IMG/VR virus record: IMGVR_UViG_3300002307_000164
Coordinates: 1-30,620 of that record
Strand: one strand, 5' to 3'
Origin: a virus
Lineage: Duplodnaviria > Caudoviricetes
Length of the DNA stretch: 30,620 nucleotides
The translations under genes were made by a program, and so were the position numbers. The notes under the pieces are model-generated. The model ran no database searches, was not told the origin of the DNA, and was given only the letters and a program-made list of their open reading frames with translations. Positions within the stretch are counted from its first letter, which is position 1; each line of letters opens with the position of its first letter. Below are positions 3,410 through 26,072 of the stretch, in pieces.

Positions 3410-3658
3410 ATGGACAATAACAATATAGAATCAAGAACCCCGCAACAAGAATTTTCTTTTTATTTGCCTTGGTTTCAAGATAATATAAAAGGAAAAGACG
3501 TTACTATACTTTCTGAAAAAATAGGATGTTCCGTAGCTTCAATGTATAATTATCTTGGCGGCAACGTGCCGGATACTAGCAAATGCAAGTATATAGTAGA
3601 AGAAGCAATTAAATTGTTGAACGACAAAGGATTATTTTTTATAAATACTGAATTATGA
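3410..3658 (+). CDS. Cro/XRE-like helix-turn-helix regulator
   Basis: 82 aa with HTH pattern 'VTILSEKIGCSVASMYNYLGG'. First gene after the divergent promoter. Confidence 0.65.
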   Translation: MDNNNIESRTPQQEFSFYLPWFQDNIKGKDVTILSEKIGCSVASMYNYLGGNVPDTSKCKYIVEEAIKLLNDKGLFFINTEL

Positions 3659-4065
3659 AAACTTTTACTTGGTATATTTATCAAATTTTAATTAACGACA
3701 AAGTTGTTTATATAGGTAAAACAACAAATATATTAAATAGAATTGGTCAACATTTATCATGTTTTAAAAAACCAAATTTTTATTTTCAAATTTTTATAAA
3801 TCAACATATAAATAAAGGAATTTATCCAAAATTTGAAATTGTTTTCATTACAAAAAACGGAGCAGACGCGCATTGTAAAGAATTTCAATTGATAAAAGAA
3901 TCAACCACTTCTTTAAATGGAAGATTCAAAAAAATGTATAGCAATAAAGATGATGATTTCTTTAAATTCTATATAATTAAAAAATCTTTACAATATAAAG
4001 AATTTTGTAAAAAATCAAAAAAAGATATAGAAATTCAACTTTCTTCTTTACTTGAAAAACTGTAG
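3655..4065 (+). CDS. GIY-YIG nuclease (homing-endonuclease-like)
   Basis: YIY...VVYIGKT...RIGQH...E motif set. Markedly AT-rich relative to neighbours. ATGA overlap with the upstream gene. Confidence 0.75.
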   Translation: MKTFTWYIYQILINDKVVYIGKTTNILNRIGQHLSCFKKPNFYFQIFINQHINKGIYPKFEIVFITKNGADAHCKEFQLIKESTTSLNGRFKKMYSNKDDDFFKFYIIKKSLQYKEFCKKSKKDIEIQLSSLLEKL

Positions 4066-4070
4066 TTGTA

Positions 4071-5207
4071 ATGAAAAAAATAACCTTAAGCATATCCAAA
4101 CTTCGTGAATTCATAGTTTTTGCTGATAAAATTGAATCCGCAAAAAATATTGACATGCTTTCTACTAAGGATTATATTAAGCTTGAAATTGTAATGGAAG
4201 AAGTAATGTTGACTAAGCACAACGTTTACGCTTTCGTTAAACATTCATTCACACAAGCAGACCAGGACGATTTGGACGGTTTATTGATTAACGAAAAAAT
4301 ATTCTTTGATTACATTAAAACTTGTCCAGAATCATCAAAAAGTCTATATATACAGTACGAACAAAAGGAAAATTCAATGTTCGTTTCCATTTCCGACAAT
4401 GAAAAAATGAAAAACAAACAATCGTTTAACTATTCTACTGAAATGGTTAAGATTGAAAACTTTCCAAATACGGACGTACAAACCGGAGGTGTTCAAAAAA
4501 CCAGAATCTTACAAGACGTAATTTCATCAATAAACATTGCAAAAGGGTTTATTTCAAAAGACAATGGCGCTGGTTCATTATTCTGCGCATTATATATCAT
4601 CAACGACTGCATTTATGCTTCCGATAGATTTACTTTCTATTACAAAAAACTTATTTCCGCTAAATCGTTACCGTTTATAGCAATTACCACCGAACAAATA
4701 CGAATACTAAACAACGATTTGAATTTCATAGATTATTGTGTTACGCCAACGCACAACTTATATTACAAAGGAAACACCATATTTGGATATAGGCAAGAAG
4801 AAGGAATGAACGGTTACGACTATACACAATTCTTTGAAAAGTCACCACAGGATTACATAAAGGTTAGGGTTGATGATTTGATGTTGTTTTGCAATCGTTC
4901 AAAAAATCTTTCTTCTTTGGGTGATTTGCATTTCATACCAAGTAGATGTACGGTTGAAGGAAATGAGGCTATATTCAAATACATCGACACTGACTATGGT
5001 AATGAAAACATAAATGAAGTTGCAATACTTTCTAGTGGTGGTATCATGCAACCGTTTTCTTTGAATCATTCGCTTTGGTACGAATTGCTTAAGCCATTGC
5101 CGTACAAAGAAATAATTATCAATCACAATCCGAAAATGCCATTTATATCAATAACGTCTACCGAAGATAAGGAATTTTATTGTGTGGTATCAAAGGTTAA
5201 CTTATGA
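4071..5207 (+). CDS. DNA polymerase III beta-subunit-like sliding clamp (divergent)
   Basis: 378 aa (DnaN size), with 'ENFP' after the first domain, 'IYASDRFTF' resembling the DnaN ATDxxRL motif, and 'FSLNHSLWYELLKPL...FYCVVSKV' resembling the DnaN C-terminus. Confidence 0.65.
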   Translation: MKKITLSISKLREFIVFADKIESAKNIDMLSTKDYIKLEIVMEEVMLTKHNVYAFVKHSFTQADQDDLDGLLINEKIFFDYIKTCPESSKSLYIQYEQKENSMFVSISDNEKMKNKQSFNYSTEMVKIENFPNTDVQTGGVQKTRILQDVISSINIAKGFISKDNGAGSLFCALYIINDCIYASDRFTFYYKKLISAKSLPFIAITTEQIRILNNDLNFIDYCVTPTHNLYYKGNTIFGYRQEEGMNGYDYTQFFEKSPQDYIKVRVDDLMLFCNRSKNLSSLGDLHFIPSRCTVEGNEAIFKYIDTDYGNENINEVAILSSGGIMQPFSLNHSLWYELLKPLPYKEIIINHNPKMPFISITSTEDKEFYCVVSKVNL

Positions 5208-5566
5208 TACAAACCTACCAGAACGACCTAGAAATATTACTAAAAGGCGAAGGTTTTATGCGCCTCATTCTTGCTAGTATTATTGACGAAGCACAACCGA
5301 TACTTGAAAAAGGTATTGATTCCGCTAGGGTTTGTATTGTTTCAAAGTATAGTGAAAATGAAATTGGTAAACGGTTATGCATTGACGCTAACTGGGAAAG
5401 ATATTCTGACGAACGTTTAATAATACGTATAAACGAAGTAATTTCATTCGAAGAAATTGACGGTATGCCGGATTGCGTATTGGATAAGTATAACGAAATT
5501 AAAAAAGCATATGAAAGCGGTGAATTTAGCGAGTGTTTTGATTCAATAGGAGGGCTTCGGTTATGA
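5204..5566 (+). CDS. hypothetical protein
   Basis: 120-aa ORF with ATGA overlaps on both sides. Confidence 0.7.
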   Translation: MIQTYQNDLEILLKGEGFMRLILASIIDEAQPILEKGIDSARVCIVSKYSENEIGKRLCIDANWERYSDERLIIRINEVISFEEIDGMPDCVLDKYNEIKKAYESGEFSECFDSIGGLRL

Positions 5567-6315
5567 TTACTTTCTTCGATTTAGAGACTACCGGAACATC
5601 AACAACCAAAGATAGAATTGTATCGTTTAGTGCGATACAAACCGATAATAATTTTGTTAAAGTCGAAGGTTCTGAAAAATCACTTTTGTTTAATCCTGGT
5701 ACTGGAATACTAATACCAAAAGAAGCTTCCGATGTGCATGGGATTACAAATGAAATGGTTGCCGGAAAACCTACTTTTAAACAATATGCACCGAAGATTT
5801 TGGCGTATATGTATCTATCTGATTATCTTGGCGGATACAATATTTCGAAGTTTGACATTCCATTACTATTTGAAGAATTTTTTCGTTCGGACGGTATAAT
5901 TTTTGACATAGAACGTTTTAAAATACTTGACGGTTGTCAAGTGTTTCATAAAAAAGAACCAAGGGATTTAACGGCGGCTGTGAAATTTTACACAGGAAAA
6001 AAACTTGAAGGAGCGCATAATTCCGACAATGATACAATTGCTTCTTTAGATGTATTAGAGGGTCAAATGTTCATGTACGATATGTCGATTGAAGATTTGG
6101 TAGAATACAGCAAACAGAAAGGAGAATTTGTAGACTTCGATAGAAAAATAAAACGCAGGGAATCAGACGGTGTGTTTATTTGGGGTGATTTTGGAAAGAA
6201 TAAAGGTCGTCCGATAAAAGAAGACTTATCATACTGCGATTGGTTTCTTGGTGCGGATTTTTCTTCACATAGTAAAATTATTTTAAGGCAAATTATAACT
6301 AATAAAATTATATAG
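5563..6315 (+). CDS. DEDDh 3'-5' exonuclease (DnaQ/epsilon-like)
   Basis: ExoI DLETTG, 'ASDVHGITNEMV', ExoII YNISKFD, ExoIII AHNSDND, and C-terminal FGKNKG small domain. Confidence 0.92.
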   Translation: MITFFDLETTGTSTTKDRIVSFSAIQTDNNFVKVEGSEKSLLFNPGTGILIPKEASDVHGITNEMVAGKPTFKQYAPKILAYMYLSDYLGGYNISKFDIPLLFEEFFRSDGIIFDIERFKILDGCQVFHKKEPRDLTAAVKFYTGKKLEGAHNSDNDTIASLDVLEGQMFMYDMSIEDLVEYSKQKGEFVDFDRKIKRRESDGVFIWGDFGKNKGRPIKEDLSYCDWFLGADFSSHSKIILRQIITNKII

Positions 6316-6316
6316 A

Positions 6317-7213
6317 ATGAAAACGAAAACAATTGAAAAAATAATTTCAAAAAAGTTTAACGAATTTTTATCTTCAATAAAAGATGAAAACGTTAAATTG
6401 TTAGTTAAGAAAAATACTATCATTACTGGTGGTTGTATTTCTTCAATGTTTTTAAACGAAAAAGTAAATGATTATGATTTATATTTTACAAATTATGAAA
6501 CAACATTAGCAGTTGCTAAATATTATCTTAACGTATTTAACGAAAAAAATAAAACAAGTGGTTATGTTTTAGATTGGGATAAACATAATAAAGAACAAAA
6601 CCAATTTAAAGTGCCGGATTTGGTAGAAGAATTTAGGGTTAAAATAATGTTTGATTCTATGGGTTCGGCTAAAGAAGTTGGATTACAAGATGAATCGGAA
6701 ATACATGAACTTGGAGATACAATTGAAGTTAAAGATGACGAAGGTGAAAAATACAGACCTATTTATATTTCATCAAATGCGATTACTCTTTCTTCACAAA
6801 TACAAATAATAGTACGTTTTTATGGTGAAGCAAATGAAATTCACGATAATTATGATTTTTCACATTGTACTAATTATTGGTTGTCTGAAAAAGAAAAACT
6901 TTACATAAACCAAAAAGCTTTGGAATGTATTTTAACAAAGGAACTTTTTTATATTGGAAGCAAATACCCGCTTGCTTCCATTATAAGAATTCGTAAATTT
7001 GTTAAACGTGGTTGGCAAATAAACGCAGGGCAAATAGTAAAAATGGCTTTACAATTAAATACATTTAATTTACTTGACCCTAAAGTGCTTGAAGAACAAT
7101 TAACTGGTGTTGACTTGTCATACTTTGCGCAATTAATAGAAGCAATACAAAATGCTAGTCCAGAAAAACTTAACTATCTTTATATATCAGAAATAATAGA
7201 CCGTATATTCTAA
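6317..7213 (+). CDS. nucleotidyltransferase, CCA-adding/poly(A)-polymerase-like (Pol beta superfamily)
   Basis: GGCISS...NDYDLY catalytic motif. 'DNYDFSHC' and 'KYPLASIIRIRKFVKRGW' echo the RRDFT and EDPLRxxR motifs of class II NTases. Confidence 0.7.
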   Translation: MKTKTIEKIISKKFNEFLSSIKDENVKLLVKKNTIITGGCISSMFLNEKVNDYDLYFTNYETTLAVAKYYLNVFNEKNKTSGYVLDWDKHNKEQNQFKVPDLVEEFRVKIMFDSMGSAKEVGLQDESEIHELGDTIEVKDDEGEKYRPIYISSNAITLSSQIQIIVRFYGEANEIHDNYDFSHCTNYWLSEKEKLYINQKALECILTKELFYIGSKYPLASIIRIRKFVKRGWQINAGQIVKMALQLNTFNLLDPKVLEEQLTGVDLSYFAQLIEAIQNASPEKLNYLYISEIIDRIF

Positions 7214-7232
7214 ATCAAACATAATATAGTTT

Positions 7233-7769
7233 ATGCATAAACACATCAATAACTTCAGAAAATTACTTATCGCATTAAATGACAAAAATCTTGTATTATG
7301 CGGTACTTTAGCATTGAAAATTCACGGATTAAAAATGCATAGGGAATCCGGCGATTTAGATGTTGCCATATATAAACCTACCGATAAACAAATGTCTATA
7401 CTTAGAAATTTATCTATGTTACAGACAAGAGAAGACGGCTTTCAAGAAGGACACGATAAAATACAGGACGAAGACTACCCAATTGATAATATAATTTTGA
7501 AGTTTCAAAAAAGTGGATACAAAATTGATATTCATTTAACAAAAGATGAACTTCCAAAAAATGTAGAGTTTCTTTACTATGAATTTAATACAAATGGTAT
7601 TCATCATATACCTATGACTTTCTTTTTTAAAGTACAAAACATAGCTTTAAATATAGAAGCTAAGAATTCTTACGCAATAAGAAATCAAGACGGATTGCGT
7701 TTGTATCGTAGGATAAAAGACGCAAAAGATTTCCAAGACCTAAAAAATTCTAACTTCAACCTTGACTAG
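7233..7769 (+). CDS. minimal nucleotidyltransferase-fold protein
   Basis: LCGTLALKIHG...RESGDLDVA (G...DxD), third acidic residue in KIDIH, and C-terminal K...R-x-KD-x-x-D motif (RIKDAKD). Confidence 0.65.
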   Translation: MHKHINNFRKLLIALNDKNLVLCGTLALKIHGLKMHRESGDLDVAIYKPTDKQMSILRNLSMLQTREDGFQEGHDKIQDEDYPIDNIILKFQKSGYKIDIHLTKDELPKNVEFLYYEFNTNGIHHIPMTFFFKVQNIALNIEAKNSYAIRNQDGLRLYRRIKDAKDFQDLKNSNFNLD

Positions 7770-8113
7770 TGATAGCCACCACCAAAGCAAACATAATAAA
7801 CAAATACCGTGAACCAATTAAGGTATCCACGTACTACTTACATAAGTCAGGTAAGTATATGGTTGAAGAAGTTTCAACGGAACCAGTTTATTATTGCAAG
7901 ATAGGTGACGAAGTTGGATTGATTTCCAGAAATTTTTCAATTGGCGGATGGTTTTACGTTGTGATAAATAAAAAAGATGAAACGTTTTTAATAGATGAAA
8001 AAGATATAGATTGCGATTTTCATTTTTTACCACAATCCGTTACTGAAAAAATACCAAATTATAGAATGAATACGCATAAGTTTACCGATTTCCAAGAATT
8101 TAACTTTTTCTAA
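7769..8113 (+). CDS. hypothetical protein
   Basis: 114-aa ORF. The GTG start overlaps the upstream TAG. Confidence 0.6.
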   Translation: MIATTKANIINKYREPIKVSTYYLHKSGKYMVEEVSTEPVYYCKIGDEVGLISRNFSIGGWFYVVINKKDETFLIDEKDIDCDFHFLPQSVTEKIPNYRMNTHKFTDFQEFNFF

Positions 8114-8123
8114 AAATTAACCT

Positions 8124-8151
8124 TTCGGTGTAGGTCAACCGAATATTTTTT
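8124..8151 (+). terminator. stem-loop TTCGGT/ACCGAA followed by TATTTTTT
   Basis: 6-bp stem (8124-8129 with 8138-8143) and T tract in the intergenic gap, immediately before ATG 8152. Confidence 0.4.
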
Positions 8152-8586
8152 ATGAACAATACAAATTATGATGTAGAATTAAGAATACAAACTAAATTAG
8201 CAATAAAATGGTCTGTTTTGGGGCTATTAATTATTGTTGTTTTAGCTTGTACTTGTATGATTGGCTGTCCTTCATACAAAGTTTACACCTCTAAAAAAGA
8301 AGGTGAAGCTATTTTAGCACATGCTCAATCATCAAGAGAGGTTGCGGTTGCCGAAGCAAAAGCAAAAATGGAAAGTTCTGCTTTGCTTGCACAAGCAGAT
8401 ACTATAAGAGCGCATGGCGTAGCAAGGTCTAATGTTATAATAGGTCAATCTCTTAGTGACGCTTATCTTCATTGGTATTGGCTTGATAATATAGATAAAA
8501 ATCCAAATGCTGTTATTTATGTTCCAACAGAAGCAAATATGCCAATAATGGAAGCTGGAAAAAGAATTGATATAAAACAAAAATAA
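8152..8586 (+). CDS. membrane protein with SPFH/prohibitin-like coiled-coil C-terminus
   Basis: One TM segment (WSVLGLLIIVVLACTCMIGC), Ala/Glu-rich coiled coil, and 'ARSNVIIGQSLSDAYLHWYWLD...VIYVP' resembling band-7 C-termini. Confidence 0.6.
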   Translation: MNNTNYDVELRIQTKLAIKWSVLGLLIIVVLACTCMIGCPSYKVYTSKKEGEAILAHAQSSREVAVAEAKAKMESSALLAQADTIRAHGVARSNVIIGQSLSDAYLHWYWLDNIDKNPNAVIYVPTEANMPIMEAGKRIDIKQK

Positions 8587-8587
8587 T

Positions 8588-8637
8588 CACCCTTATGGTA
8601 AACTTCATTGTTCGATTCAATGAAGGGTGCAACTATA
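8588..8637 (+). promoter_or_regulatory. structured 5' leader of the methyltransferase
   Basis: Perfect 8-bp stem CTTCATTG/CAATGAAG (8603-8625). A competing or enclosing stem is CACCCTT/AAGGGTG. Confidence 0.45.
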
Positions 8638-8641
8638 TACA

Positions 8642-9583
8642 ATGGCTAAGAAACACCAAGGAGTAACTACAGATATTTTCAACCAAGGAGTGATACAAGA
8701 CGAACTTCTTAGAGACCGTTTTATAGAACCGCCATTTTCCGTATTGGATACAAAACAAGGTGGTTGGCAACGAAGGAAAAAACTTTGGAAAGCCAAGGGT
8801 TTAAAATCGGAAGTAGGACGTACCGCAACAACATTCAACATCAAGGAATGGGCTGATGACAAGACCGAATCAAAATCAACACCAATAGATATTTCAATAT
8901 TTGACCCAGCGTTATGCGAAGTTATATATCATTGGTTTTGCGAAAAAGGTGATTCAATACTTGACCCTTTCGCAGGTGGTTCTGTAAGGGGTATTGTTGC
9001 AAACTACTTAGGTTTTAAATATACCGGAATAGATATTAGACAAGAACAAATAGATAGTAACTATATCCAAGGTGGTGAAATTATACCTTCAGCGGTTCCA
9101 AATTGGATGTGCGGTGATAGTAATGAAGTTCTTGATTCAATATCAGAATCTTTCGACCTTGTTTTTTCATGTCCACCATATGCAGACCTTGAAGTTTATT
9201 CGGATTTACAAGGTGATATAAGCAACATGAAATATGAGGATTTCTTAGAAAGTTACGAATCTATAATAGAAAAAAGCTGTAGACTTCTAAAAACTGGCGG
9301 TCACGCTATATTCGTAGTTGGTGAAATTCGTGACAAGGATGGATATTATGTTGGTTTTGTACCGGATACAATACGTGCATTTGAAAAGGCCGGAATGAAA
9401 TTCTACAACGAAGGTATTCTTTTACAAGCCATTGCAACGGCTTCAATTCGTGCGGAAGGTAATATGAAGTATAAAAAGTTGGTAAAGGTTCATCAAAATA
9501 TACTTGGGTTTTATAAGCCTACGGGGAACGAAAAAGAAGATAGACAGAAAAAAACTTCATTCATAACAAACGATATTTGGTGA
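8642..9583 (+). CDS. amino (N4-C/N6-A) DNA methyltransferase
   Basis: SAM-binding ILDPFAGG, GIDIRQEQ, and catalytic SCPPY. Start is probably ATG 8642 (track gives GTG 8627). Confidence 0.88.
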   Translation: MAKKHQGVTTDIFNQGVIQDELLRDRFIEPPFSVLDTKQGGWQRRKKLWKAKGLKSEVGRTATTFNIKEWADDKTESKSTPIDISIFDPALCEVIYHWFCEKGDSILDPFAGGSVRGIVANYLGFKYTGIDIRQEQIDSNYIQGGEIIPSAVPNWMCGDSNEVLDSISESFDLVFSCPPYADLEVYSDLQGDISNMKYEDFLESYESIIEKSCRLLKTGGHAIFVVGEIRDKDGYYVGFVPDTIRAFEKAGMKFYNEGILLQAIATASIRAEGNMKYKKLVKVHQNILGFYKPTGNEKEDRQKKTSFITNDIW

Positions 9584-9906
9584 AAACACTTCTGGTTATT
9601 TCCAACAACTTAGACGATGCAATTGACAAAGCAATTGCAATAGGGGTTTGTTTTTATAATAGAAACGAAATAAAAAACCGTGTAACAGAAAGAACAAACT
9701 TAACAAAAGAAACTAAGTGTGTTATATTTCATTGTATGGGAATGGAGGGACTTAAGTTATTAGCAAATAAACACGATGACAAATATACTAGGATTGTTGT
9801 TGGAACATTTAAGTTACCGCCGGAAGAAGAAAGAAAACAATGGTTAACAAGGGGGTTTGTTATTATTAATTTACGTGAAGACTTTATAAGTAAAATACTA
9901 TGGTAG
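9580..9906 (+). CDS. hypothetical protein
   Basis: GTG 9580 overlaps the MTase TGA (GTGA). Its stop overlaps the next start. Confidence 0.6.
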   Translation: MKTLLVISNNLDDAIDKAIAIGVCFYNRNEIKNRVTERTNLTKETKCVIFHCMGMEGLKLLANKHDDKYTRIVVGTFKLPPEEERKQWLTRGFVIINLREDFISKILW

Positions 9907-10766
9907 ATTTCGAATTCGGTCTTGATAGCTTTTATTCCGGTTGGAAGCCAGTTTGCAAAGAAGTAATATTGGAACACAACCAAAATATTAAACAAGCCGA
10001 ATACTTCAATTCGTTTATATATCAACAATATAATGGAATGAAGTATAAATCGCTTGATGACGGTGAAATAGCCGTTATTCGTCTTGTTCCTATCATGGGT
10101 AACTATAACGCTATTCGTTATTGTGGTGGGTACGGTTCAAAAAGTTCATCTACGTTATCATATAACGGATTCACGCTTAGGGGTTCAGACATAACCGAAG
10201 GAGGAAAACCCGATGATTTCGGTAGTGAATTTGTTTATGATGCAAACGAACTTATTATGATGCATGGTAAGAAGTTTGAAAGAATAAGAAACACAATAAA
10301 CACAAGAAAATACAATAATGAATTTTCTTTATTATTTGAAGAAAAAGATATTTTATTAGTTATAAACGAATGGTCTAAAGCTACAAATTCAAAACATCAA
10401 ATAAAACTTTTTGAATTCATAAAGAAAAATAAAGAACTTTGTAATTTTTTAACTGTATATACTCCTGAAAAAGAAATAATTGGAATATCTATCGTTGAAA
10501 AAATAAACGAAACTAACGGAGTTATAATACAGCAACTTATAAACCCATTGATTAAAGATAAAATAAAAGAACCAAACATATTGATTCATTTTTATAATTG
10601 TCTACATCATAGTGGTATGAAGCTAAACATTGGCGGCGCAAGAAACGAACAGATACGTGTTGCCAAGTCTAAGCTTCAACCGTCACTAATGCTTCCAATA
10701 TACAGGAAAATATCAACTACGAAAAAACTATCTAAAACGGAATACGAACTATTAAAACATGGGTAA
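9900..10766 (+). CDS. DUF2156 / MprF C-terminal-like (Fem/GNAT-fold) aminoacyl-tRNA-dependent transferase-like protein
   Basis: 'EFVYDANELIMMHGKKFERIRNTIN' and C-terminal 'LNIGGARNEQIRVAKSKLQP' resemble the family signatures as I recall them (Y...L..L.GKK...KRN..N and N.....GLR..K..Y.P). No TM segments. Recognised by eye. Confidence 0.6.
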   Translation: MVDFEFGLDSFYSGWKPVCKEVILEHNQNIKQAEYFNSFIYQQYNGMKYKSLDDGEIAVIRLVPIMGNYNAIRYCGGYGSKSSSTLSYNGFTLRGSDITEGGKPDDFGSEFVYDANELIMMHGKKFERIRNTINTRKYNNEFSLLFEEKDILLVINEWSKATNSKHQIKLFEFIKKNKELCNFLTVYTPEKEIIGISIVEKINETNGVIIQQLINPLIKDKIKEPNILIHFYNCLHHSGMKLNIGGARNEQIRVAKSKLQPSLMLPIYRKISTTKKLSKTEYELLKHG

Positions 10767-12612
10767 GATAGGATTAGAAATACCTAAAACAATATTAGAA
10801 CCTTTTCAATCTAGGGCTAAACAAGAAACATACGACCTAATAAAAAATGGTTGCAAACGTATCTGCTTTGTACTGCCAGGCGGAGGCGGGAAAACTGTTA
10901 TGATGTCTGAATTTACTTATGACCTTATAAACGACCTAGAGGTTTTCTATCAATCCATTAATCCGCAATATAGGGATGTTGCCGTACTTGTTCACCGCCA
11001 AGAATTACTTGACCACTACCGGAATGAATTAAATGATGGATACGGTTTGTTTTCACATAGGATTGACGCAGAAACAAAAAATATACCACAAGGGGTAAGG
11101 TCTTTTGCTTGTATGGTTGAAACGTTTGATAGAAGAAGTAACGACCCATCATTTTTAAGCAATTTCAAAAACGTAGGGTTGCTTTTAACAGATGAAGCAC
11201 ATCTTAACCATTTCAAAAAAGTATTTAAACATTTTCCGAAAGAACGTATATCTATTGGTTTCACCGCTACGCCAATTAGTGCGGTTAAGTCAGACCCGCT
11301 TATAAATCACTATGATGAAATTGTAGTTGGTGCAACAATACAAGAACTAATTGAACTTAACGAAAGAAAACCAAATAGGGGTATAGTAACTTGTCAAGGT
11401 TTCGATTATAACCTTGGAGATGTAGACCTTTCAAAAGTTCGTAAGTCAAAAGGTGATTATGCTGAATCGGAACTTTCAACAATATTTTCAGCGGATAGAC
11501 AGATAGACAATACAATAGATGCATACGAAAAGTTTTGCGTTCCTAGGGGTCTTAAAACTTTGATATTCAATTGTGATGTTGAGCATTCGGTTAAGATGCA
11601 CGAAGCCTTATTAAAAAGGGGTCATGTATCGCAACATATTCATACCGGAAAGGTCAATACGGATAAGGTAGATGCGAAGTATAACTATAATGGTGGTAAG
11701 GCGCATCGAGAGTTCCTATTAGGGCGGGGTTCTAAGAAAGGTTGGGCGGATACCTACAACGGCGGGGCTTGCGCCATAAACAATGTAGGAATAGCCACCA
11801 TTGGAACGGATATAAAAAGCATACAATGTGTTATAATCAATCGTTCTACCGATTCATTTACTTATTTTTGGCAAATGGTTTATAGGGGTGATAGGGCTTT
11901 TGTTTGGCCAGATGGTTCGATAAAAACACACTTCTATTTATTGGACATGGGAAACAATATATTGTTCTCGGACGGTTCAATTCATCATGGAAGATTTGAA
12001 ACCCCTATTGATTGGAAGTTTATTTTTCATAATCCTAATCTTCCCAGACCAGGAGTAGGTGCAATAAAAAGTTGTCCAGAATGTGGTGCAATAAATCCGG
12101 CTAGTGCGTCATGTTGTTCGGCGTTAGTAGATGATTGGATAAGTGGTGAAGAAGTTGAATGTGGTTATTTGTTCCCAACCAACGATAATGAACTGGTTGT
12201 AGATGACCTTTCAATACGTGAAATGGTAAAGATTGATAATTTCTTAAAAGATTCAATAGACATTAGGGAAAACATAAAGTATTTCATTGAAAAAGAAGGC
12301 CGTCCGGCGGCAAGGGTATTTTACGAAACAATAAAGCAAGTTTGTAACATATACAAGAAACAATTAACAAACGGTGGATTCTTTTATATGATAGGACAAA
12401 AAGAATTCGAACTTCTTGCTAATGTATGTGTTGCAAAGGCTAAAGAATTTTTCCATGAAATGAAGATAGGTCACTACATGAATTACAAACTTACTATAAA
12501 GAAAGAACTGTGGTATTATCTACCAACGATAGGATTTGTATTTAATGGTATTACCGTGGACATAAAAGAAATTGAAGAAAAACTTTCACGAACATATTTA
12601 AAACTCACGTAG
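10759..12612 (+). CDS. superfamily 2 DEAH helicase with zinc finger (RadD/YejH-like)
   Basis: Walker A PGGGGKT, VHRQEL, DEAH, GFTATP, motif VI QMVYRGDR, and CPECG...C...C zinc ribbon. Confidence 0.9.
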   Translation: MGKIGLEIPKTILEPFQSRAKQETYDLIKNGCKRICFVLPGGGGKTVMMSEFTYDLINDLEVFYQSINPQYRDVAVLVHRQELLDHYRNELNDGYGLFSHRIDAETKNIPQGVRSFACMVETFDRRSNDPSFLSNFKNVGLLLTDEAHLNHFKKVFKHFPKERISIGFTATPISAVKSDPLINHYDEIVVGATIQELIELNERKPNRGIVTCQGFDYNLGDVDLSKVRKSKGDYAESELSTIFSADRQIDNTIDAYEKFCVPRGLKTLIFNCDVEHSVKMHEALLKRGHVSQHIHTGKVNTDKVDAKYNYNGGKAHREFLLGRGSKKGWADTYNGGACAINNVGIATIGTDIKSIQCVIINRSTDSFTYFWQMVYRGDRAFVWPDGSIKTHFYLLDMGNNILFSDGSIHHGRFETPIDWKFIFHNPNLPRPGVGAIKSCPECGAINPASASCCSALVDDWISGEEVECGYLFPTNDNELVVDDLSIREMVKIDNFLKDSIDIRENIKYFIEKEGRPAARVFYETIKQVCNIYKKQLTNGGFFYMIGQKEFELLANVCVAKAKEFFHEMKIGHYMNYKLTIKKELWYYLPTIGFVFNGITVDIKEIEEKLSRTYLKLT

Positions 12613-12615
12613 ACA

Positions 12616-12831
12616 ATGACAAACATAGAAATACTAGGCGAAAAGAACATAAAAATACCGGAAGGTTATCGTAAGCTTGAAGAGCAAGAAACGGTAAGAA
12701 TAGATGATATGATTTGTCATGTAACCGGAAAACATCTTGAAGTTTCTTGGTTAAAACCGGAAACTATAAGTGAAGTTGGAAAGCAAAGAAAATACTCGGG
12801 TCAACTTATAATCCGTAAAATTATGAACTGA
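12616..12831 (+). CDS. hypothetical protein
   Basis: 71-aa ORF in the operon. Its stop overlaps the next ATG. Confidence 0.6.
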   Translation: MTNIEILGEKNIKIPEGYRKLEEQETVRIDDMICHVTGKHLEVSWLKPETISEVGKQRKYSGQLIIRKIMN

Positions 12832-13040
12832 TGACAAAAGAAAGTATATACGAACTTCAAAAAATAGATTGCAATTGTAATAATTGCAAGTTTATGGAAC
12901 GGGATTTAAGTAAGCCGCCAACAAAGGGGCGAGCGGCAAAGATTAACTACGGTCATTGTAAAAAGTTCGACAAACCAGTAACATTCATTCCATCAATTTG
13001 TCAGTTAGATACTCAGGAATGTTTTGAACATAGAAAATAA
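12831..13040 (+). CDS. small Cys-rich (putative metal-binding) protein
   Basis: CNCNNC...HC...C...C in 69 aa. Confidence 0.65.
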   Translation: MTKESIYELQKIDCNCNNCKFMERDLSKPPTKGRAAKINYGHCKKFDKPVTFIPSICQLDTQECFEHRK

Positions 13041-13050
13041 AAGTAATATA

Positions 13051-13236
13051 ATGACAAAAGCTGAAGAAATACTCAAAAGACATATAAACCGACTTAACTC
13101 AATTAACCCAAAAGAATATGATGATTTCGAAACAATATCATATTGTCAACCGGATATAATAATTGAAATGCTTAATGCAATGGAAAGATATGCGGAATAC
13201 AAAATGTTAGAAAAAACAAAAAAGCCAACCAAATAA
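13051..13236 (+). CDS. hypothetical protein (MTKAEEIL...)
   Basis: ATG 13051 follows an A-rich leader. Last gene of the rightward operon. Confidence 0.6.
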   Translation: MTKAEEILKRHINRLNSINPKEYDDFETISYCQPDIIIEMLNAMERYAEYKMLEKTKKPTK

Positions 13237-24948: not shown

Positions 24949-26022
24949 CTAGTTCGACCAACCTGCCGTAATAAATTCCGGTAGGATTATCTGGCTTCCA
25001 CCAAGCAAGAACTGCTGGTAGTACCATGAACGGTTCAAACGCCTCCACCATATAACCAATGATTCCCTGTCCTGTGCTCCTTCCGCTCCGGATTCAAGAC
25101 CCGCAGGGCCTTCTCCGTAAGTCTTGTCGGTAGCAAAGATAAAGTTACGACGAACTGTCATCAATACTGCGTGGTGGAAACCTGCGCCAAGTATGTCGCT
25201 AAGAACCGGCTCCCATAATGGAACAACAACTATTGGTGTTCCTTGGTAAGCTGGCATTTTGCGGCCTTCACCCAACCATGTAACAATTACTTCGGTACTT
25301 GTACCAAGTGTGTTCATGTAGTTGCTAAAGCCATCCAAAGTTGCCTGGTCGCAATAGATAACCTTGCTTGCTGCTGGCCATGCCCTCATCAAAACAGGCT
25401 GCGCTCTCCATGCTGCGTCAATTGCATTGAACGCATCTTCATAGTGCGCAGGGTCACGGTAGTCTGTAGCCGCCGGAGTATATATTTGTGCGCTTGGAAT
25501 AAGGTTTCCGGCATACGTAGCAATCCATTTCCATATACCATTGAACACGGTAGAAGAAAATTGCAAAGAAGCTGTGTTGATACGACTTGTATCACCAAAC
25601 CACAAGTTTGTAGCAAGGTCGGTGCGGGTAGCCGCCAAGAAGAAAGGCGTGATTTTGTTTTCGAAAACTTCTGGGTTATCACGGAAATCACGCAATGCAC
25701 CCTGGTAGAATTCGTGACGGCAATGCTGCGTAGCACCGTACATCTGGTCTGTTTCAACATACCTTAAAGCGGTTGTACCGATACGCTTGTAGATAAGTTC
25801 GCAGTTCTTATCTTCACGCTGAAGTATGTTAAACTTCGGTGTAATATCAATAATTGGCCTACGATTAGGGCAATTATCCATTATCGTAAAGTCGGCAATT
25901 GCGCCATCATAAACACCATCACCTTCTCCAACAAGTGAAGTAAATGAAGGATGTACTATAATGTCGTACATGCTTAACGGGTCGATAATCGCTGTCTTAT
26001 TATTAATTGCTTCTGAAGCCAT
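24949..26022 (-). CDS. major capsid protein
   Basis: About 357 aa from ATG 26022; 'DLATNLWFGDT', 'FNGIWKWI', 'YQGTPIVVVPLW'. Follows the protease and decoration genes, has an A-rich leader, and is followed by a hairpin. Confidence 0.8.
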   Translation of the reverse strand: MASEAINNKTAIIDPLSMYDIIVHPSFTSLVGEGDGVYDGAIADFTIMDNCPNRRPIIDITPKFNILQREDKNCELIYKRIGTTALRYVETDQMYGATQHCRHEFYQGALRDFRDNPEVFENKITPFFLAATRTDLATNLWFGDTSRINTASLQFSSTVFNGIWKWIATYAGNLIPSAQIYTPAATDYRDPAHYEDAFNAIDAAWRAQPVLMRAWPAASKVIYCDQATLDGFSNYMNTLGTSTEVIVTWLGEGRKMPAYQGTPIVVVPLWEPVLSDILGAGFHHAVLMTVRRNFIFATDKTYGEGPAGLESGAEGAQDRESLVIWWRRLNRSWYYQQFLLGGSQIILPEFITAGWSN

Positions 26023-26072
26023 GACCAAAGTTTTTATTTGTTTTTTTTTAAATGTTGTGTCTTTTTTTTTTA

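Follow-up and report, generated by a model that had tools for sequence, protein, structure and literature searches.

Genes at the locus

The stretch of DNA analysed here (the window) is an entire linear virus record of 30,620 bases, about 47% complete. Its source is a tailed phage. The portal, the head protease and the endolysin are encoded on the minus strand, whereas a DNA-metabolism block (3410-13236) occupies the plus strand. In this block a gene for a methylase-like, S-adenosylmethionine (SAM)-dependent transferase is followed, one gene further on, by a gene for an aminoacyl-tRNA-transferase-like protein, called the transferase below. We found that these two genes form a real and recurrent two-gene viral module, for which we propose, with about even confidence for and against, a role in a two-step hypermodification of DNA. 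The pair comprises the following features:

8642..9583, plus strand: methylase-like SAM-dependent transferase of the phrog_12517/phrog_498 family (Pfam N6_N4_Mtase, E 2e-12; phrog_12517, E 1e-87)
8963..8992, plus strand: SAM-binding motif I, DPFAGGSVRG ("G/R type"), from sequence, alignment and tallies
9170..9181, plus strand: variant CPPY of catalytic motif IV, invariant in 23/23 aligned sequences
9900..10766, plus strand: free-standing DUF2156/Fem-fold (double GNAT) aminoacyl-tRNA-transferase-like protein (PF09924, model and fold matches)
10266..10289, plus strand: basic segment G123-R130 (GKKFERIR), putative counterpart of the tRNA-binding alpha(+) helix (48/49 conservation)
10626..10682, plus strand: C-terminal N-x-G...K-x-K-L-x-P segment, N243-P261, likely active-site wall (family conservation)

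The original prediction had read four open reading frames (ORFs) at 8642-12612, namely these two genes, a small ORF and a helicase gene, as one coupled chain and as a candidate modification system. The ORFs lie where it placed them and overlap at their stop/start junctions by 7, 7 and 8 nucleotides (nt). Such overlaps were rejected as evidence for a system, since of the 12 other junctions of this block six overlap as well and three more are spaced by 1-5 nt; where overlaps are so common, they do not indicate that the genes share a pathway. As a unit of four genes the chain lacks conservation, and the methylase-like/transferase pair alone recurs. Therefore, the ORFs, their overlaps and the DUF2156 fold of the third protein were correctly recognised, but the significance given to the overlaps and the four-gene unit had to be abandoned.

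A divergent viral DUF2156-fold protein

The transferase consists of 288 amino acids (aa). Its match to PF09924 (LPG_synthase_C; E 1.8e-5, 24.4 bits) falls below the curated cut-off of 27.5 bits, while its relatives P0031, P0038 and P0054 exceed this cut-off, which points to a divergent viral DUF2156 branch. At a threshold of E 1e-30 a profile search reached 22 clusters; at 1e-3 the number rose to 201, and the set merged gradually into the Pfam family. With an AlphaFold2 model (predicted local distance difference test 79, low confidence at residues 122-141) as the query, the best Foldseek match was 2HQY (E 3.6e-10), a BT protein without an assigned function. The structural comparison with 2HQY (VIA) gave Z 21.0 and a root-mean-square deviation of 3.1 over 254 aligned residues, and the tandem GNAT/Fem fold, for which the original prediction had called for a Foldseek search, is thus present in the model. 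The next structural matches were MprF, L-PGS and A-PGS at Z 14-16 and FemX, Sbb17 and Sba18 at Z 13, followed by acyl-CoA GNATs at Z 11 or less. Mom was not among the structural matches listed, and no direct comparison with Mom was made. Matches in the Atlas had template-modelling (TM) scores of 0.76-0.80, and viral clusters predominate among the nearest ones there; the viral structure library returned only distant GNAT entries with TM scores under 0.5.

When the sequence was searched against solved structures, 2HQY was the sole match (E 0.47), with the region of G123-R130 aligning weakly to its residues 118-157. G123 and R130 are each present in 48/49 family members. A basic helix is described as the tRNA-binding element in the ErdS and ErgS papers (PMC7334510, PMC8913301). 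Its counterpart between the two GNAT halves of the window protein is recognised by sequence alone, the model being unsure in this part. In the C-terminal segment K256 is found in 49/49 members and G245, L259 and P261 in 48/49, and N243-P261 is likely to form a wall of the active site.

The highest hydropathy over 19 residues is 0.93, and the protein is soluble and has no membrane flippase domain, as the original prediction had stated for this DUF2156/MprF-C-like protein. With its length of 288 aa it is therefore not an MprF. Judged by the model, we regard it as a divergent viral DUF2156-fold protein with putative transfer activity. In the collection of cultured phages neither the window protein nor P0044 as a query gave a match. 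A more distant architecture was seen in P0097 and P0118, where an LPG_synthase_C domain is fused to ATP-grasp, in P0097 also to PGA_cap.

A methylase-like family with a variant motif IV

The methylase-like ORF encodes 313 aa from an ATG; a GTG at 8627 would give 318 aa. The model shows a class I Rossmann fold, and together with an FxGxG-type motif I this is the arrangement of N6-adenine/N4-cytosine amino-methyltransferases. Motif I lies ahead of motif IV and there is no ParB domain. The top Foldseek entries were TrmN, PrmA and Trm11. By sequence, the closest solved structure is 2ZIE (E 3.5e-13), and the kin are DNA amino-methylases (2ZIE, N4-cytosine methylases, CcrM and PvuII). Motif IV of canonical amino-methylases reads (D/N/S)PP(Y/F). 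This form is absent from the window protein, which has CPPY like all 23 aligned sequences; the S/T preceding it matches TSPPY of 2ZIE.

In the viral collection the CPPY family accounts for roughly 2,300 of the stored stretches. Many members carry a ParB-like domain, and these ParB-fused relatives often lie just upstream of terminase genes. Several phages have two copies within 4 kb (L007 3732-7130, L009 3322-5818, L077 and L098); in L077 one copy is of the G/R type and the other of the Asp type, with a SAM decarboxylase.

The pair recurs and occurs as a fusion

The 58 transferase ORFs in the fetched loci fell into 29 groups at 90% identity, the window included. A CPPY-family methylase was found in 17 of these 29 non-redundant loci. 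In 14 it lies within 33 nt of the transferase, in the window and in L237 one gene stands between them, and in L022 the distance is 5.5 kb. The methylase is located upstream in L005, L017-L020 and L057 and downstream in L041, L210 and L227-L238. Hence the pairing spans both gene orders, phages as well as two giant-virus-like contigs (L017 and L018), and methylases that are only 25-45% alike. Relatives on giant-virus-like contigs (L001-L004, L017, L018 and related ones) are 38-48% alike to the phage transferase; two of these contigs keep a diverged CPPY methylase beside it and the other copies have none.

The two enzymes also occur joined in one protein. P0064 (1,097 aa) consists of a ParB domain and a methylase of the G/R type, as in the window, into which the transferase is inserted between motifs I and IV, which suggests sequential action. 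It was the one fused form recovered by an exhaustive profile search; a word-based search for longer fused forms, a weak method, found none. At the same junction between motifs I and IV, gp70 of the cultured phage Pam4 (L050 973-3462) contains a pyridoxal phosphate (PLP) enzyme. Gp70 is annotated just as a PLP enzyme, its methylase-like host domain being unannotated. Gene-neighbourhood analysis, as the original prediction had proposed, thus linked transferase relatives to a DNA-modification gene. The fold, the lack of a flippase and this linkage stand, the four-gene system does not, and the role of the "methyltransferase" has to be revised as follows.

Residue R248 of the transferase accompanies 4/4 Arg-type methylases and is absent with 5/5 of the Asp type, a pattern as expected if the acceptor has a carboxylate in the former and lacks it in the latter. 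P0064 has an Arg one position after this site. In L057 the transferase (4863-5294) is shortened to 143 aa, its N-terminal start being joined to the C-terminal half with loss of the middle. It still lies between an Asp-type ParB-methylase and a SAM decarboxylase, and P0039 is a near-identical protein.

Decarboxylase partners of the methylase-like family

Partner genes were counted in two sets. The first comprised the 90 methylase loci nearest to that of the window (88 contigs), the second 80 loci from an Asp-type search. A PLP enzyme occurs in 6/90 loci of the first set and in the cultured phages Vincenzo, Mae-JY30 and Pam4; the methylases that pair or fuse with it are those of the G/R type. 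This partner is homologous to M6 gp52 over its full length (hhalign 98.8%, E 5e-17, 219 columns); tblastn did not reach M6 gp52, but the profile comparison did. For gp52, decarboxylation of a glycine attached to a base in DNA has been described (PMC8989533). A methylated base would be no substrate for such an enzyme, which favours an adduct other than methyl.

In the second set, 71/73 loci whose motif I is of the Asp form have a neighbouring SAM decarboxylase gene, compared with 0/6 of the G/R type, and the sole SAM decarboxylase of the first set adjoins the second, Asp-type methylase copy of L077. Motif I of the SAM-decarboxylase-linked relatives reads FAGD[TAS]VFG. Aminopropyltransferases are described with a motif hhhhGGG(D/E)G in the region binding decarboxylated SAM (PMC11107197), and in our own reading of the register the Asp of motif I would fall where these enzymes have GGG(D/E)G. 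The SAM decarboxylase of phage P2559S is experimentally active according to PMC9992855, and its gene overlaps that of an Asp-type methylase. In the window we found FAGGSVRG instead of the Asp form, and no adjacent SAM decarboxylase.

The methylase family thus has interchangeable partners: SAM decarboxylase, PLP decarboxylase and transferase. We conclude that it probably transfers the aminocarboxypropyl or aminopropyl arm of SAM and not a methyl group. Two routes would then lead to one product, either decarboxylation of SAM followed by aminopropyl transfer or aminocarboxypropyl transfer followed by decarboxylation on the DNA.

A further subfamily combines the transferase with a ParB-methylase of motif FAGDT[QY]KG (L227 3892-8719, L237 4989-9706, L229, L233, L235, L236 and L238). 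Its loci encode a PP-loop-like protein of 382-394 aa, two of them also a SAM-synthetase-like protein, and it is possibly another altered-cofactor variant.

A possible two-step DNA hypermodification

Both folds, the recurrent adjacency, the fusion and the exchangeable partners of the methylase family are observed; the chemistry of each step, the action on DNA and on a particular base, the kind of amino acid and the function are inferred. The methylase-like enzyme would transfer the 3-amino-3-carboxypropyl arm of SAM, instead of methyl, to the exocyclic amine of a DNA base (N6 of adenine or N4 of cytosine). In a second step, the DUF2156-fold enzyme would take an amino acid from a host aminoacyl-tRNA and use it to acylate the primary amine introduced in the first. 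For relatives that also encode a SAM decarboxylase, 3-aminopropyl is the expected handle; as the window enzyme is of the G/R type and the record yielded no decarboxylase, it would leave 3-amino-3-carboxypropyl. The alpha-amine of this group would be a good acyl acceptor, and R248 might recognise the carboxylate of the adduct. Protection from nucleases is the usual role of such marks and is established for Mom (PMC13219725). The modification might also serve to neutralise charge during packaging, because ParB-fused relatives often stand just before terminase genes. We consider the chances of this two-step pathway, an amine handle on the base followed by tRNA-dependent aminoacylation, to be evenly balanced.

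Several findings weigh against it. No CPPY methylase was present in the fetched DNA of 12/29 transferase loci (seven giant-virus-like groups, the short contig pair L025/26 of the same branch, the phage loci L034 and L047, and two fragments), and the complete-rated giant-virus bin behind L004 gave one weak match, to an ordinary methylase, so that the transferase can exist without a CPPY partner. In the reverse direction, a transferase was found in 0/90 loci of the first set and 2/80 of the second, so that it is an accessory to the methylase. Of the 17 positive loci, eight belong to one related phage subfamily that was found through a methylase search (L210), P0064 is a single sequence on one 47.8-kb assembly contig, and the R248 pattern reflects one split in the tree and not independent events. 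The Asp rule is not absolute either, as seven loci with Asp/Lys in motif I have no decarboxylase nearby; a PP-loop-like gene follows there, and in two of the seven a SAM-synthetase-like gene is adjacent. The window methylase itself has neither decarboxylase in the partial record, and 82/90 of its nearest relatives are of the G/R type without a tested partner, which plain methylation would explain equally well. Moreover, GATC is absent from the window where about 143 sites (both strands) would be expected, and CGCG, with three sites only, is strongly avoided. This depletion amounts to strong restriction-site avoidance. The lack of GATC suggests that the DNA is not generally shielded, and a mark made by the proposed module might be limited to certain sites.

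Some of these points would suit an arrangement in which the G/R-type enzyme is an ordinary N6-adenine or N4-cytosine DNA methylase, direct acylation of a base is the task of the transferase, and the two genes stay together as parallel anti-restriction tools. Mu Mom alone is described to move glycine from Gly-tRNA to N6 of adenine in DNA (PMC13219725), unrelated small methylase-like genes lie beside the transferase in L047 and L022, giant-virus transferase copies stand alone, and most G/R-type methylases lack a tested partner. Nevertheless, G/R-type members pair or fuse with a PLP decarboxylase, which needs an amino-acid-like group, the insertion in P0064 suggests that the enzymes act in sequence, and CPPY is non-canonical; we therefore regard this arrangement as unlikely, though conceivable. 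The handle-then-acylate chemistry could also be directed at an aminoacylated polyamine-like small molecule, a tRNA or a protein. The sequence kin of the methylase, the ParB-like domain of many family members and the homology of the PLP partner to a DNA-acting enzyme speak against such targets. On the other hand, the transferase matches at Z 13 the Fem-fold proteins Sbb17 and Sba18, whose acceptor is a small amine (streptothrisamine), SAM decarboxylase is described as normally supplying polyamine synthesis (PMC9992855), and the RNA and protein methylases TrmN, Trm11 and PrmA head the list of fold matches for the methylase. On balance a substrate other than DNA seems to us rather improbable.

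Aminoacylation of a host membrane lipid or of cell-envelope material, as by MprF or the fungal ErgS, with the methylase as a hitch-hiking neighbour, would agree with the nearest characterised folds, which are lipid aminoacyl transferases (Z 14-16), with the description of free-standing DUF2156 proteins that glycylate a sterol (PMC8913301), and with the giant-virus copy L001 among glycosyltransferase and GDP-mannose dehydratase genes. We consider it very unlikely for the window, since the transferase has no membrane segment, the adjacency survives changes in gene order and methylase subtype, and a fusion exists. It suits the partner-less giant-virus copies better.

Comparison with known systems

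The proposed DNA pathway resembles the CmoA/CmoX/CmoY system of Synechococcus phage S-B43, for which a methylase-fold enzyme adding a non-methyl SAM-type handle and a second enzyme adding an amino acid are described (PMC12783734). According to the same source, that system acts on C5 of cytosine with a carboxymethyl handle and an ATP-dependent ligase, whereas for the window pair an enzyme of the N6/N4-type family, an amine handle and an aminoacyl-tRNA donor are predicted. Mu Mom, too, is described as a GNAT-superfamily viral enzyme that uses charged tRNA for DNA modification, but it acts alone and on unmodified adenine (PMC13219725), while the window transferase is a double-GNAT DUF2156/Fem protein with a SAM-dependent partner. 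By analogy, the pair would work like CmoX/CmoY with a Mom-like donor, yet belongs to neither system.

With DUF2156/LPG_synthase_C proteins and their relatives (BT 2HQY, MprF/L-PGS/A-PGS, ErdS/ErgS, FemX, Sbb17/Sba18) the transferase shares the whole-length fold, the basic helix as read from sequence and the C-terminal lysine region. It differs in an identity of only 7-16%, the missing flippase, the sub-threshold Pfam score, its viral origin and the methylase-like neighbour. The described acceptors of DUF2156/Fem transferases that we found are lipids, a sterol, peptidoglycan precursors and small amines.

Gp51-54 of Pseudomonas phage M6 represent a similarly modular tailoring of base adducts, and a gp52 homologue partners the methylase family elsewhere; the M6 pathway is described to start with 5-hydroxymethyluracil, a kinase and free glycine (PMC8989533), and no such genes are annotated in the window. 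Croceibacter phage P2559S (gp66-67), Stutzerimonas phage ZRG1, Mycobacterium phage Vincenzo (gp1-2) and Pseudanabaena phage Pam4 (gp70) combine the same methylase family with a SAM decarboxylase or a PLP enzyme, but the transferase is in no cultured phage of the collection. In the literature we found no description of the DNA chemistry of these four phages, nor a phage DUF2156/methylase system or aminocarboxypropyl-DNA; a computational survey of DNA-base modification systems (Iyer et al., 2013) may already predict parts of such a system.

Neighbouring genes

The remaining members of the four-gene chain are:

9577..9906, plus strand: small ORF of 107-109 aa, probably a real gene (codon score; no relatives)
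10759..12612, plus strand: superfamily-2 (ResIII-like) DNA helicase, part of the operon backbone (Pfam ResIII, E 2e-13; phrog_16, E 5e-41)

The small ORF encodes 109 aa from a TTG, with an alternative GTG start at 9580. Its codon-use score of 0.159 lies within the 0.06-0.22 of five held-out genes, with its other five frames negative, and it is probably a genuine gene. There was no Pfam hit below E 0.06 and none in PHROGs or NCBIfam, and no relative in the Atlas (best 0.85), the viral scan, the local profile or the related loci, which rules it out as a conserved part of the module. The helicase (617 aa) was ruled out as well: in L007 an orthologue (E 5e-80) directly follows a CPPY-family methylase without a transferase, and no other transferase locus of the neighbourhood scan has one. 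Both genes are passengers outside the module.

Upstream of the methylase-like gene lie a phrog_4400 protein without an assigned function (6317-7213) and a weakly nucleotidyltransferase-like ORF (7233-7769; AbiEii/DUF4269, E ~1e-3). The methylase-PLP-methylase trio of L009 likewise has a phrog_4400 homologue in front of it. A minus-strand protein of the structural region (24949-26028) had no match among cultured phages. No tRNA genes were found in the window, and its promoter and terminator counts were close to shuffle levels.

Significance

Both genes encode small, soluble products, and the first-step gene is present in cultured phages, so that the proposal would be cheap to test. If it is true, the pair would provide a new DNA base and two new enzyme activities, the transfer of a SAM side arm to DNA and the acylation of DNA from charged tRNA by a DUF2156/Fem enzyme, and a primary amine placed on DNA by an enzyme would be a useful handle for labelling. 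It is plausible, though with a likelihood somewhat short of even, that a large phage "DNA methylase" family really consists of DNA aminocarboxypropyl or aminopropyl transferases and that the Fem-fold enzyme here builds an aminoacyl-amide side chain from charged tRNA. In that case a common phage "methylase" family would have to be re-annotated, and DUF2156 enzymes would gain a new class of substrate common to phages and some giant viruses.

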